DNA of 64,000 nt from Escherichia coli 042 (GTDB taxonomy: Bacteria; Pseudomonadota; Gammaproteobacteria; Enterobacterales; Enterobacteriaceae): the NCBI RefSeq assembly GCF_000027125.1, contig NC_017626.1; one strand, written 5' to 3'. A model generated the notes under the pieces. The model worked only from the letters and a program-made list of their open reading frames with translations, was not told the origin of the DNA and made no database searches. Every line of letters begins with the position of its first letter. Positions within the stretch are counted from its first letter, which is position 1. A program made the translations under genes and the position numbers. Shown here one piece after another: positions 42,287-49,134 of the stretch.

Positions 42287-42372
42287 TTATGAATTCTGAA
42301 AAATAGCAAGGGCGGTACTATTTTACATAAGTTACATTCATACTCTGCCCATGGTAAACAGGACGTATTGCA

Positions 42373-42507
42373 ATGAGTAGGCATGATATTTTAATGAGAT
42401 CGTATTATGAGCGAATAATAGAGCTTGATTGCGTCGGTCAGGCTTTAATCTCTTTCTATGAAAAACTTCCAGAGGAAATTTTATCAGAAAATAATGGATT
42501 GGATTAA
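42373..42507 (+). CDS. possible small ORF (44 aa) at the start of the AT-rich insertion
   Basis: ATG-initiated frame MSRHDILMRSYYERIIELD...; weak SD; overlaps the longest reading of the next ORF in another frame, so at most one reading is real. Confidence 0.2.
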   Translation: MSRHDILMRSYYERIIELDCVGQALISFYEKLPEEILSENNGLD

Positions 42508-42511
42508 TAGT

Positions 42512-42850
42512 ATGAAAAATGTAGACAATATTATCTGGCATGATGGTGTTTTAGTTGAAACAAGAATGGAATGTCACCACGCCGGGTATAATTTTATATT
42601 GACGACAGAACTTTATGTTGATGAATTTACAGCCGGAAGGGAACGAAAAAGATTCGAGTTTACAGGAGTGGAACATTTATCGCAGGTTATGGATATTGCT
42701 GAGCTTATAGATAACCAAAACGCAGGTAATATTAAAGATGCGACAATTGTTTATAAGGCAAAGAAGTATGAAATTTCACTTCATTTGTTTGGCGGTTTTT
42801 TAAGTTTTACATTTAAAACCATGCGAGTTGTTGACAATGAATTTGAGTAA
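42512..42850 (+). CDS. hypothetical protein (112 aa; 130 aa if started at 42458), AT-rich insertion ORF 1
   Basis: Same-strand ORF in visibly AT-rich DNA; no recognisable motif; contains ECHHAGY. Confidence 0.4.
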   Translation: MKNVDNIIWHDGVLVETRMECHHAGYNFILTTELYVDEFTAGRERKRFEFTGVEHLSQVMDIAELIDNQNAGNIKDATIVYKAKKYEISLHLFGGFLSFTFKTMRVVDNEFE

Positions 42851-43286
42851 TGCCAAATGCGACAAATTGTCTTTTTATGAAGAAAAAATCCGCTGGCGAA
42901 TGCGTCGGCAAATCTCGAATGCAGAGGCAATATTTTACGAGAATCAGGAAGAACACATTCAGCGCTTTTTAGGCAGATATACCTGTCGCAAACCGGTTCT
43001 TGTTTATTGGGAAAGTGAACAAAGATGGACATCTGTAAACGGTCTGGAAGTGATGAGTATGTTTGATGGGCATTGTCATCACATCTACCTTGATGATATC
43101 AATAAAAAAATACAAGCTGAATTACCTGAAGATAAAACATTAGGTTTCAAACGTCAATTGCAATTTTTCAGTTTAGGGGATGAGAAGATTAGAATATGGG
43201 TGCCACAGGGGGAATTATATTTCGCATTAATGAATGTATTGCAGATGTTCCCCCTGAAGAAAATGGTTAATGACTGGACAAGGTAA
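42837..43286 (+). CDS. hypothetical protein (149 aa), AT-rich insertion ORF 2
   Basis: ATG overlaps the 3' end of the previous ORF by 14 nt; contains HCHHIYL; no recognisable domain. Confidence 0.4.
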   Translation: MNLSNAKCDKLSFYEEKIRWRMRRQISNAEAIFYENQEEHIQRFLGRYTCRKPVLVYWESEQRWTSVNGLEVMSMFDGHCHHIYLDDINKKIQAELPEDKTLGFKRQLQFFSLGDEKIRIWVPQGELYFALMNVLQMFPLKKMVNDWTR

Positions 43287-43404
43287 TTTCAAATCACAGT
43301 AATGTCCATCGATTATACATGGTACGTAAACAGACTCGCACCGTTTTTGCAGAAGGTTAATGTGTGTCTATTGAGTGCAGTCTCATATATGAAGGGGTAT
43401 TGAC

Positions 43405-43782
43405 ATGGATGAATGTTTTATAAATATCACTCCGACTTCATTGTCTTTTAAAAACGCCGATCTGTCAGATTTAAGCTATAAAAATGCCAGGCTTGAACTT
43501 ACCCTGATATGCCCGGCGATCAAGTCAGAAGTTAAGTTATCATTTGACTGGATACATTCATTTCGTGTTACTGACGAAGGTGATTTGTTAGGAATGTCAG
43601 GAATGCACGGTATTAACCAAACAGGTATCTATAGAGTAGTGAATTCCGCCTATTTTTCATGGTTTACTATGCAAAGTTGTGAAATTTATAAAAATAATGT
43701 GATCGAGCATTATGTCATTGCCACGTCAAATGATGTTATTGATGTTTTATCAACAGTTTCTCCGCAAATACAGTATGACTAA
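43405..43782 (+). CDS. hypothetical protein (125 aa), AT-rich insertion ORF 3
   Basis: SD-like AAGGGG 8 nt upstream of ATG; no recognisable domain. Confidence 0.45.
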   Translation: MDECFINITPTSLSFKNADLSDLSYKNARLELTLICPAIKSEVKLSFDWIHSFRVTDEGDLLGMSGMHGINQTGIYRVVNSAYFSWFTMQSCEIYKNNVIEHYVIATSNDVIDVLSTVSPQIQYD

Positions 43783-43897
43783 AACCAGTGTCTGGTTCGC
43801 GATGGCGAGGTAGAAAAAGCATCATCTTCCTTTCAGAGTGCTCCGCTTCTCATTATTATCTCACGCAGTATTCTTAAGGAAACGATAAGGAGGAACC

Positions 43898-44698
43898 ATG
43901 AACATTACCCCGTTTCCGACGCTTTCGCCGGCAACCATAGATGCCATAAATGTTATCGGTCAGTGGCTGGCGTAGGATGATTTCTCCGGTGAGATGCCGT
44001 ATCAGGCCGATTGCGTGATCCTTGCAGGCAATGCGGTTATGCCAACTATCGATGCGGCATGCAAGATTGCCCGCGATCAGCAAATTCCTCTACTGATTAG
44101 TGGTGGTATCGGTCACTCGACAACTTTTTTGTATAGTGCCATCGCACAGCATCCGCACTACAACACTATCCGCACCACTGGCAGAGCAGAAGCTACCATC
44201 CTGGCGGATATCGCTCATCAGTACTGGCACATTCCGCATGAAAAAATCTGGATTGAAGACCAGTCAACAAACTGCGGTGAAAACGCACGCTTTAGCATCT
44301 CGCTATTGAATCAGGCCGTAGAACGAGTTCATACGGCTATCGTTGTTCAGGACCCCACAATGCAGCGGCGCACGATGGCGACGTTCCGCCGTATGACTGG
44401 GGACAATCCCGATGCACCACGCTGGTTAAGTTATCCCGGATTCGTTCCTCAGCTAGGAAACAACGCAGACAGTGTAATCTTTGTTAATCCGTTGCAAGGA
44501 TTATGGCCGGTTGAGCGTTATCTCTCACTACTCACTGGCGAGCTGCCACGTTTACGCGATGATAGCGATGGCTACGGTCCACGCGGGCGAGATTTTATCG
44601 TTCACGTTGATTTTCCGGCAGAAGTCATCCAGGCATGGCAAACGCTGAAACACGATGCGGTGCTCATCGAGGCGATGGAAAGTCGCTCGTTACGTTAA
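43898..44698 (+). pseudogene. ydcF: ydcF (DUF218 family) carrying an in-frame amber stop at codon 26
   Basis: ATG with AAGGAGG SD at 43898; TAG at 43973-43975 after ...GQWLA; frame continues ...[18 protein letters not shown]... to 44698 (266 codons total). The track ORF restarts at 43994. Confidence 0.7.
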
Positions 44699-44894: not shown

Positions 44895-46334
44895 ATGTCA
44901 GTACCCGTTCAACATCCTATGTATATCGATGGACAGTTTGTTACCTGGCGTGGAGACGCATGGATTGATGTGGTAAACCCTGCTACAGAGGCGGTCATTT
45001 CCCGCATTCCCGATGGTCAGGCCGAGGATGCCCGTAAGGCAATCGATGCAGCAGAACGTGCACAACCAGAATGGGAAGCGTTGCCTGCCATTGAACGCGC
45101 CAGTTGGTTGCGCAAAATCTCCGCCGGGATCCGAGAACGCGCCAGTGAAATCAGTGCGCTGATTGTTGAAGAAGGGGGCAAGATCCAGCAGCTGGCTGAA
45201 GTCGAAGTGGCTTTTACTGCGGACTATATCGATTACATGGCGGAGTGGGCACGGCGTTATGAAGGCGAGATTATTCAAAGCGATCGTCCAGGAGAAAATA
45301 TTCTTCTGTTTAAACGTGCGCTTGGCGTGACTACCGGCATTCTGCCGTGGAACTTCCCGTTCTTCCTCATTGCCCGCAAAATGGCTCCCGCTCTTTTGAC
45401 CGGTAATACCATCGTCATTAAACCCAGTGAATTTACGCCAAACAATGCGATTGCTTTTGCCAAAATTGTCGATGAAATAGGCCTTCCACGCGGTGTGTTT
45501 AACCTTGTGCTAGGGCGTGGTGAAACCGTTGGGCAAGAACTGGCGGGTAACCCAAAGGTCGCAATGGTCAGTATGACAGGCAGCGTCTCTGCAGGTGAAA
45601 AGATCATGGCGACTGCAGCAAAAAATATCACAAAAGTGTGTCTGGAATTGGGTGGTAAAGCACCAGCTATCGTAATGGACGATGCCGATCTTGAACTGGC
45701 AGTCAAAGCCATCGTTGATTCACGCGTCATTAATAGTGGGCAAGTGTGTAACTGTGCAGAACGTGTTTATGTACAGAAAGGCATTTATGATCAGTTCGTC
45801 AATCGGCTGGGTGAAGCGATGCAGGCGGTGCAATTTGGTAACCCCGCTGAACGCAACGACATTGCGATGGGGCCGTTGATTAACGCCTCGGCGCTGGAAA
45901 GGGTCGAGCAAAAAGTGGCGCGCGCAGTAGAAGAGGGGGCGAGAGTGGCGTTGGGGGGCAAGGCAGTAGAGGGGAAAGGATATTATTATCCGCCGACATT
46001 GCTGCTGGATGTTCGCCAGGAAATGTCGATTATGCACGAGGAAACCTTTGGCCCGGTGCTGCCAGTGGTCGCATTTGACACGCTGGAAGAGGCTATCGCA
46101 ATGGCTAATGACAGTGATTACGGCCTGACCTCATCAATCTATACCCAAAATTTGAACGTCGCGATGAAAGCCATTAAAGGGCTGAAGTTTGGTGAAACTT
46201 ACATTAACCGTGAAAACTTCGAAGCTATGCAAGGCTTCCACGCCGGATGGCGTAAATCCGGTATTGGCGGCGCAGATGGTAAACATGGCTTGCATGAATA
46301 CCTGCAGACCCAGGTGGTTTATTTACAGTCGTAA
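44895..46334 (+). CDS. aldA: lactaldehyde dehydrogenase (NAD-dependent aldehyde dehydrogenase)
   Basis: 479 aa ALDH family; catalytic Cys region; K-12 synteny. Confidence 0.9.
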   Translation: MSVPVQHPMYIDGQFVTWRGDAWIDVVNPATEAVISRIPDGQAEDARKAIDAAERAQPEWEALPAIERASWLRKISAGIRERASEISALIVEEGGKIQQLAEVEVAFTADYIDYMAEWARRYEGEIIQSDRPGENILLFKRALGVTTGILPWNFPFFLIARKMAPALLTGNTIVIKPSEFTPNNAIAFAKIVDEIGLPRGVFNLVLGRGETVGQELAGNPKVAMVSMTGSVSAGEKIMATAAKNITKVCLELGGKAPAIVMDDADLELAVKAIVDSRVINSGQVCNCAERVYVQKGIYDQFVNRLGEAMQAVQFGNPAERNDIAMGPLINASALERVEQKVARAVEEGARVALGGKAVEGKGYYYPPTLLLDVRQEMSIMHEETFGPVLPVVAFDTLEEAIAMANDSDYGLTSSIYTQNLNVAMKAIKGLKFGETYINRENFEAMQGFHAGWRKSGIGGADGKHGLHEYLQTQVVYLQS

Positions 46335-46375
46335 TGAGTGAAAGAGGCGGAGGTTTTTCCCTCCGCCTTTGCGCG

Positions 46376-47377
46376 TCAGAGTTTAGCGAATTTTTCGAGG
46401 GTGCGAATAAGCTGCGTGACGAAGCCATATTCGTTATCGTACCAGGCGACCGTTTTCACCAGTTGTAAATCGCCCACGGCGGTAATTTCCGTTTGCGTGG
46501 CATCAAACACCGACCCGAAATGGCTGCCAATGATATCAGAAGAGACTATTTCTTCATCGGTATAACCAAATGACTCGTTATTGTTTGTCGCCTTTTTAAG
46601 CGCGTTGTTCACCTCTTCGGCAGTCACTTTTTTTCCAAGAATAGACACCAGTTCAGTCACCGAACCTGTTTTCACGGGTACGCGTTGCGCATGACCTTTC
46701 AGTTTGCCGCTCAGTTCCGGGATCACCAGACCAATGGCTTTTGCCGCACCTGTAGTGTGGGGAATGATATTTTCTGCCGCTGCACGTGAAGCGCGTAGAT
46801 CTTTACCTCGCGGACCATCCACCAGTGACTGAGTGCCGGTATAGGCATGAATGGTCGTCATCGTGCCGACTTCTATTCCGAAACTGTCGTGCAAGGCTTT
46901 GGCCATCGGTGCAAGACAGTTAGTGGTGCATGACGCCACGGAAACAATGGTGTCGTTGCCATCCAGTGTGTCGTCATTGACGTTATAAACGATGGTTTTC
47001 ATTTCACCGGCAGGGGCGGAAATCAACACTTTCTTCGCACCAGCATCAAGATGCGCCTGCGATTTCTCGGCGGAGGTATAAAAGCCAGTACATTCGACAA
47101 TGATTTCTGCGCCTTTCGCTTTCCATGGAATATTTTTAGCCTCTTTTTCGGCGTAAACCGCGATACTTTTTCCATCAACGATAAGTGAATCTTCCGTAAA
47201 ATCAACGCGCCAGGGGAACGGACCATAGTTTGAATCATGTTTCAGCAGATAGGCGAGAATTTTTGGGGAAGTGAGATCATTAATAGCAACAATGTCTATG
47301 TTGCTTTTGACTTCAAGTAATCGACGCAACACCAGTCGACCGATACGACCAAAACCGTTAATACCAACTTTACTCAT
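46376..47377 (-). CDS. gapC: glyceraldehyde-3-phosphate dehydrogenase C, intact
   Basis: 333 aa uninterrupted ORF; N-terminal [13 protein letters not shown]-binding motif; catalytic SCTTNC. Confidence 0.85.
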
Positions 47378-47565
47378 GGTCTTCTCCTGTCAGGAACGTT
47401 CGGATGAAAATTGATCCTTTCCAGGCTTAGACCAGGATGGCGGGATGGGCAATCTACATTCTTGCCGTGAAACGTAACGTACTGAAAACGGGTGAACAAT
47501 ATTTAATGAAATTTTAAGAAAAGCTCGTTATGTTAACGGAAAATTGTTTTAAAGCAGGAAATGTT

Positions 47566-48096
47566 ATGGAAAATAAATACTCAAGGTTACAAATCAGCAT
47601 TCACTGGCTGGTCTTTTTGCTGGTTATCGCAGCGTATTGCGCAATGGAGTTTCGTGGTTTCTTCCCACGTAGCGATCGGCCGCTCATCAACATGATTCAT
47701 GTTTCCTGTGGCATCACAATTCTCGTGCTGATGGTGATTCGTCTTTTGTTAAGGCTGAAATACCCAACCCCGCCGATTATACCTAAGCCAAAACCGATGA
47801 TGACGGGACTGGCGCATTTGGGACATTTGGTGATCTATCTCCTGTTTATTGCGCTGCCAGTGATTGGTTTGGTGATGATGTATAACCGGGGCAACCCGTG
47901 GTTTGCGTTTGGTATGACGATGCCTTATGCATCAGAGGCCAATTTCGAACGGGTTGATAGCTTAAAGTCGTGGCATGAAACGCTGGCAAATCTGGGATAC
48001 TTTGTCATCGGGTTGCACGCTGCGGCTGCACTGGCACACCACTATTTCTGGAAGGACAACACACTTCTACGCATGATGCCGCGTAAACGTTCCTGA
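47566..48096 (+). CDS. cybB: cytochrome b561
   Basis: 176 aa from MENKYSRLQISIHW; four TM helices with conserved His; AGGAA SD. Confidence 0.85.
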   Translation: MENKYSRLQISIHWLVFLLVIAAYCAMEFRGFFPRSDRPLINMIHVSCGITILVLMVIRLLLRLKYPTPPIIPKPKPMMTGLAHLGHLVIYLLFIALPVIGLVMMYNRGNPWFAFGMTMPYASEANFERVDSLKSWHETLANLGYFVIGLHAAAALAHHYFWKDNTLLRMMPRKRS

Positions 48097-48106
48097 AGGA
48101 TATTTA

Positions 48107-48170
48107 AAGAAAACGCCTGTACTAAAACCGACCCGTGGTACAGGCGAAGAATACGGGTCTACATCGGAAG
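48107..48170 (-). ncRNA. rydC: RydC small RNA
   Basis: Minus-strand sequence CTTCCGATGTAGACCCGTATTCTTCGCCTGTACCACGGGTCGGTTTTAGTACAGGCGTTTTCTT matches the recalled RydC; immediately downstream of cybB. Confidence 0.7.
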
Positions 48171-48586: not shown

Positions 48587-48736
<150 letters not shown>

Positions 48737-49134
48737 AGCCTTTCTCCTTGCCGGATGGCGGGTAAGAGGCTAAGATCTGAATTGCTAGGTTCATTCGTTG
48801 GCCTCGGTTGATAGAAATATCGGTCGGGGCCTTCGTCTTTCTGATTCCCGGTTAGCCTGAAAACAGAAAGTCTCAGGCACCCGTGAGCATCCTATGTGGT
48901 TTCCTTAGGGACGAAAATAATCACCTGACGAAATTGCGTGCTGTTTTCCAGAATTTTTCGTCATTCGGTTTAGCCAGTTTAATCATTCGTTACTCTCTTC
49001 ATTCCAATGGCATTATTCTTCTCTGCCATAATTGTTGTAAAAATGTGACGCAAAGAGGTTTTTGGTCGTAAGAAATTACCGTCAAGTGCCGATGACTTTC
49101 TATCAGGAGTAAACCTGGAAGAGAGTCAACGGTA

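Follow-up and report, generated by a model that had tools for sequence, protein, structure and literature searches.

The gapC gene carried by the window, the 64,000-nucleotide stretch of E. coli 042 DNA that was analysed here, is with high probability an intact ancestral allele encoding a cytoplasmic type I glyceraldehyde-3-phosphate dehydrogenase (GAPDH; EC 1.2.1.12). As far as gapC is concerned, K-12 is the exception, and its two inherited lesions recur in roughly one complete E. coli genome in five. The remaining E. coli, this strain included, keep a conserved second GAPDH, and activity has been shown for a near-identical allele. That natural E. coli can possess an intact gapC is already known and has been published since 1998; according to the literature, environmental isolates have the intact gene and laboratory strains a mutated one. 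The significance of the present analysis lies mainly in correct annotation, and the window offers no new insight into what GapC does physiologically. Metabolic models and gapA-depletion work in non-K-12 strains should count GapC as a potential source of GAPDH.

The gapC reading frame and its locus

The ORF listing and the raw sequence agree on a single uninterrupted frame running from ATG to TAA on the minus strand, a strand that the preliminary description of this DNA had not given. The start is fixed by an in-frame TGA located 4 codons 5′ of the ATG, and this arrangement is the same in all 12 of the 12 alleles examined. An open frame of 333 codons would arise by chance with a probability of about 1e-7 (assuming uniform codons). 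Beyond this argument from length, the ORF is taken to be real because homology is decisive. Coordinates of the gene and of the features around it are collected in Table 1.

Table 1. Features of the gapC locus, in window coordinates.
Feature	Position	Strand	Description and basis
gapC CDS, 333 codons + TAA	46376..47377	-	type I NAD-dependent phosphorylating GAPDH; ORF, Pfam, TIGR01534, PDB, motifs
Shine-Dalgarno AGGAG, 6 nt 5′ of gapC ATG	47384..47388	-	read from sequence; invariant in 10-strain alignment
gapC-cybB divergent intergenic region, 152 bp	47378..47529	.	presumed gapC promoter site; 96% mean column identity, 10 strains
aldA (aldehyde dehydrogenase), convergent neighbour of gapC	44895..46334	+	ORFs and K-12/GF60 annotation
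cybB (cytochrome b561), divergent neighbour of gapC	47530..48096	+	ORFs and K-12/GF60 annotation
aldA/gapC inter-stop hairpin, GC-rich, 9 bp	46345..46368	.	fold -19.9 kcal/mol, z = -3.9

We then consider family membership. The Pfam models Gp_dh_N (PF00044; residues 3-102, 1e-35) and Gp_dh_C (PF02800; residues 155-313, 4e-58) both match over their full length and far above their cutoffs, revealing the two-domain architecture of a type I GAPDH with an N-terminal NAD-binding Rossmann domain followed by a C-terminal catalytic domain. The equivalog model for type I GAPDH, TIGR01534, gives 446.8 bits, well over its cutoff of 367.2, and aligns residues 3-325 of the protein with positions 1-330 of its 330, and PDB entry 7C5F is matched with E=1.5e-217. 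Scores against models of other GAPDH groups lie below the respective cutoffs: 277.8 versus 530.55 (TIGR01532) and 280.5 versus 539 (PRK13535) for Epd/GapB, 307.5 versus 450 for the ArsJ-associated GAPDH (NF033735), and 301.8 bits versus 662 for the GapA type (PRK15425). The neighbours are aldA and cybB, with no arsJ.

An uninterrupted GAPDH frame with NAD-binding and catalytic cysteine motifs had been reported from a first reading of this DNA, and both motifs are indeed present. NGFGRIG occupies residues 7-13, and its G8-F-G-R-I-G13 portion is invariant in the alignment together with the acidic D34. The catalytic dyad is made up of C150, lying within SCTTNC (149-154), and H177; R232, T180, T209-G210 and WYDNE are found as well. 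Among 15 aligned sequences, no variation occurs at the substrate- and phosphate-site residues T180, R195, R198, T209 and R232, and G210 is shared by the window and all aligned sequences except one cluster representative (P0002), which has W. Hidden inactivating substitutions, which that first reading had named as a possible flaw, were looked for; in an alignment with 13 enterobacterial orthologs and GapA, no catalytic residue of the window GapC is altered. By its sequence, the protein agrees on each testable point with a type I phosphorylating GAPDH and with the E. coli gapC ortholog.

The order aldA-gapC-cybB is the same in K-12 and GF60, and both this position and nucleotide identity across E. 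coli identify the gene as the gapC ortholog. The stop codons of the convergent genes aldA (46332-46334) and gapC (46376-46378) flank the hairpin listed in Table 1. Its U-tract toward gapC is weak (UCUUUC), and it is absent from the output of a strict terminator scan because of this weak T-tract. It is probably a bidirectional terminator shared by aldA and gapC. Separately, aldA is annotated as frameshifted in the O111:H8 strain 1074-2 and in ECCWS199.

Two other parts of the window deserve description. A low-GC insert (36.7% GC versus 49% for the window) occupies 42300-43900 in the interval between hrpA and ydcF. It holds three small ORFs on the same strand (42458-42850, 42828-43286 and 43405-43782) that are annotated as hypothetical proteins only, and searches with Pfam and PADLOC returned no match for any of them. 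K-12 is without the insert, hrpA and ydcF adjoining each other there, and of the 5426 complete E. coli genomes 584 have the insert at a coverage of at least 80%, among them O157:H7, where the identity is about 92%. On the other side of gapC, Rfam places the RydC sRNA directly 3′ of cybB (48107-48170, minus strand) and, at 48731-48882 (minus strand), sok, the antitoxin RNA belonging to the type I toxin-antitoxin locus hokB/sokB, and this placement corresponds to the usual K-12-like layout.

Disrupted and intact gapC alleles in E. coli

PGAP labels the gapC gene of K-12 (BW25113) 'frameshifted; internal stop'. A base-by-base alignment between the window and K-12 gapC revealed 43 substitutions and one 1-bp deletion, among which two lesions inactivate the K-12 gene. 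One is A115T, which converts codon 39 from AAA to TAA (K39*), and the other is the loss of one A from a run of seven (A7, nt 738-744), which changes the reading frame near codon 248. The gapC of the window, with AAA as its codon 39 and the full A7 run (nt 738-744), is not a pseudogene of the K-12 type. Going from the window to K-12, 42 codons differ, and the only protein-changing differences are R18G, I29V, K39*, R57S, K262Q and N265T. The preliminary description had presented K-12 gapC as a pseudogene split by a frameshift; the frameshift is correct, but the account was incomplete in leaving out the nonsense codon.

Next, we asked how common each state is among 5426 complete E. coli genomes. 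gapC was found in 5417 of them, with 5409 covering at least 80% of the query, and the best match had at least 95% identity in 5325 of the 5417 and 90-95% in the remaining 92. The frequency of the lesions was assessed from the K39* site, from match lengths in a systematic sample, and from direct inspection of sampled alleles. A 30-mer able to seed only with the K-12 nonsense base placed K39* in 1153 genomes (21%), among them many isolates of clinical, animal and river origin and not laboratory strains alone. The counterpart 30-mer with the intact codon matched 3711 genomes. The other genomes, about 550, are explained by synonymous SNPs within the 30-mer that leave codon 39 as AAA, a configuration of which the alleles of O55:H7 and Combat11I9 are examples.

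Match lengths gave a consistent picture. In a systematic sample taken down the ranked match list, 8 of 39 full-length matches were not 1002 bp long, in line with the 21% obtained from the K39* site. All of the 11 sampled 1002-bp alleles, including those of Nissle 1917, an ST95 strain, O111:H8 and O55:H7, are annotated as intact and translate cleanly. By contrast, the three alleles of 1000-1001 bp that were sampled are all pseudogenes with both K-12 lesions, one of them having an extra deletion. As both lesions are shared in the sampled alleles and K39* is this frequent, the K-12 state is a feature that a large clade has inherited, and about four fifths of E. coli keep an open gapC. Intact gapC is therefore the majority state in E. 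coli and not a peculiarity of one strain.

Other forms of damage were also encountered. LF82 GapC has a 19-residue in-frame deletion immediately before the catalytic cysteine, and several 383-aa GapC entries in the databases represent late frameshifts whose reading continues antisense to aldA. Several lineages have lost gapC independently, through K39* with the frameshift, the LF82 deletion and the late frameshifts, and this repeated loss indicates that gapC is dispensable under some lifestyles. We also observed that 5 of 5428 gapC matches lie on plasmid-typed records and that a few genomes have two copies. gapC serves as a species qPCR marker, and the O157:H7 protein has the UniProt entry P58072.

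The lineage to which the window belongs was examined through 22 kb around the gene (window 36000-58000). This neighbourhood is at most 97.9% identical to all of the 5426 complete genomes except GF60, an isolate from chicken meat in Switzerland, to which it is 99.8% identical; an IS1 that GF60 carries between cybB and ydcA is missing from the window. The lineage thus has few complete genomes among the 5426. The identity of gapC itself to most complete genomes is 95-98%. A cause of low identity (98% or less) specific to gapC, such as recombination or horizontal import, was considered and rejected: the entire 22-kb neighbourhood is equally divergent.

Selection, activity and expression

Compared with 11 other intact alleles, the window gene shows 18-40 synonymous and 2-5 nonsynonymous differences, corresponding to dN/dS values of 0.027-0.042. 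Among intact gapC alleles, mean pairwise dN/dS is 0.037, with dS up to 0.19. gapC is under strong purifying selection. The enzyme encoded by the 7C5F allele oxidises glyceraldehyde-3-phosphate (G3P) with NAD+ at a Km of 0.73 mM, and both C150 and H177 are essential in it, as their mutants lose activity (PMC8615399). The 7C5F chain is also a natural allele, being that of HKUOPY1, O111:H8 and RM9245, which have the same four differences from the window. The exact window GapC occurs on 150 public contigs (CBG34371.1, for example). The suggestion that this strain retains a potentially functional second GAPDH has thus gained support, with catalytic residues unchanged, dN/dS at about 0.03-0.04 and an active allele four residues away. 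From the sequence of the window allele, we infer that it is expressed and enzymatically active in its own strain. In the expected reaction, which follows the classical mechanism, Cys150, activated by His177, would attack glyceraldehyde-3-phosphate, hydride would be transferred to the NAD+ of the N-terminal Rossmann domain, and phosphorolysis of the thioacyl intermediate would yield 1,3-bisphosphoglycerate.

With respect to expression, a strict sigma-70 scan of 46250-47650 returned no site. A stretch at 47431..47423 on the minus strand, TCTAAGCCT, has what we take to be a resemblance to the sigma-S -10 consensus. Transcription of gapC is likely to start from an RpoS-dependent promoter between cybB and gapC, and may be induced by carbon limitation or freshwater. 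Such RpoS-dependent, starvation- or freshwater-induced expression would point to GapC as a starvation or environmental isozyme. In K-12, the gapC-1 and gapC-2 transcripts rise in slow growth and drop upon rpoS inactivation (PMC2759082). The pseudogene fragments are still transcribed there, at higher levels when growth is slow or carbon is limiting (PMC2759082, PMC4512719). gapC is transcribed in EPEC as well (PMC6333774).

An open frame could nevertheless be non-functional, and the residue that bears on this is R57 (codon 57, window 47207-47209), the only unusual residue of the window protein. The position is S in 13 of 13 sampled enterobacterial orthologs (from Escherichia, Citrobacter, Klebsiella, Enterobacter, Kluyvera and others) and T in GapA, and replacing serine with arginine is non-conservative, so a harmful effect of S57R on folding, tetramer formation or activity, leaving gapC open yet functionally dead, has something in its favour. 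We consider it very unlikely, however, as position 57 lies outside the NAD, catalytic and anion-site residues, the window allele has no secondary degenerative mutations, and the codon has persisted: an exact 28-mer with the R57 codon (CGC) is present in 177 of the 5426 complete genomes, on otherwise different alleles, in addition to the contigs with the exact protein. The same 177 genomes led us to reject the idea that R57 is private to the lineage of the window and GF60. Judging from these counts, R57 seems to be a recurrent minor polymorphism and not a fresh lesion, and its spread over different alleles suggests that it is a recombining one. It is doubtful, though somewhat less so than a dead enzyme, that S57R marks a functionally distinct GapC variant (in kinetics, surface interactions or moonlighting) maintained in about 3% of E. 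coli, and likewise that the contrast between most lineages, where gapC is under strong purifying selection, and the large clade with K-12, where one inherited double lesion is fixed, reflects a niche-specific need for GapC.

The intact allele could also be cryptic in this strain, open but silent, its integrity reflecting too little time for decay. The strict scan detected no sigma-70 consensus promoter in the 152-bp upstream region, and losses of gapC recur within E. coli, as this explanation would have it. Yet neutral drift cannot account for a dN/dS of about 0.03 at dS values of 0.19 or less over deep E. coli lineages combined with proteins 87-96% identical in other genera; conservation extends to the upstream region and the Shine-Dalgarno sequence; and even K-12 and EPEC have an active promoter (PMC4512719, PMC6333774, PMC2759082). 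Silence of gapC is accordingly improbable to a high degree. Even smaller is the probability we attach to an active dehydrogenase whose role is other than glycolytic G3P oxidation, be it Epd-like, in arsenate resistance, gluconeogenic or moonlighting. Epd/GapB sets an E. coli precedent for a paralog of GAPDH that acts on another substrate, and K-12 gapC transcripts group with gluconeogenic genes (PMC2759082), but the scores for Epd and the ArsJ-associated GAPDH are far under the curated cutoffs, arsJ is missing from the neighbourhood, and the near-identical 7C5F enzyme oxidises G3P with NAD+ efficiently (PMC8615399). A gluconeogenic direction of flux for GapC would still be GAPDH chemistry.

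Comparison with known GAPDHs

K-12 gapC (gapC_1/gapC_2, b1417/b1416) occupies the orthologous aldA/cybB locus with 95.6% nucleotide identity. It carries K39*, the A7-run deletion and R18G, whereas the window has none of the three. Alignments to K-12 gapC and to gapA had been proposed in the preliminary description as a check, and they show the window without both K-12 lesions and GapC with 47% identity to GapA. GapA, the housekeeping GAPDH, has the same fold, the same chemistry and the same catalytic motif, including H177, R232 and WYDNE. In addition to its sequence divergence, it differs from GapC in its locus and, according to the literature, in its regulation. GapC is a GapA paralog and is probably shared vertically with other Enterobacteriaceae. 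Orthologs from E. albertii, Citrobacter, Klebsiella oxytoca/grimontii, Enterobacter, Kluyvera and Trabulsiella are 332-333 aa long and 87-96% identical to the window protein; they differ from it by species-level divergence only, and all of them have S57.

The closest characterized enzyme is 'EcGAPDH1' of PDB 7C5F, for which further structures are available (7C5G-7C5R and 7C7K). It is identical to the window GapC at 329 of 333 residues, the differences being I29V, R57S, K262Q and N265T, all of surface type. I29, K262 and N265 are also found in other sampled alleles. C150, H177, and the NAD and phosphate sites are the same in both proteins.
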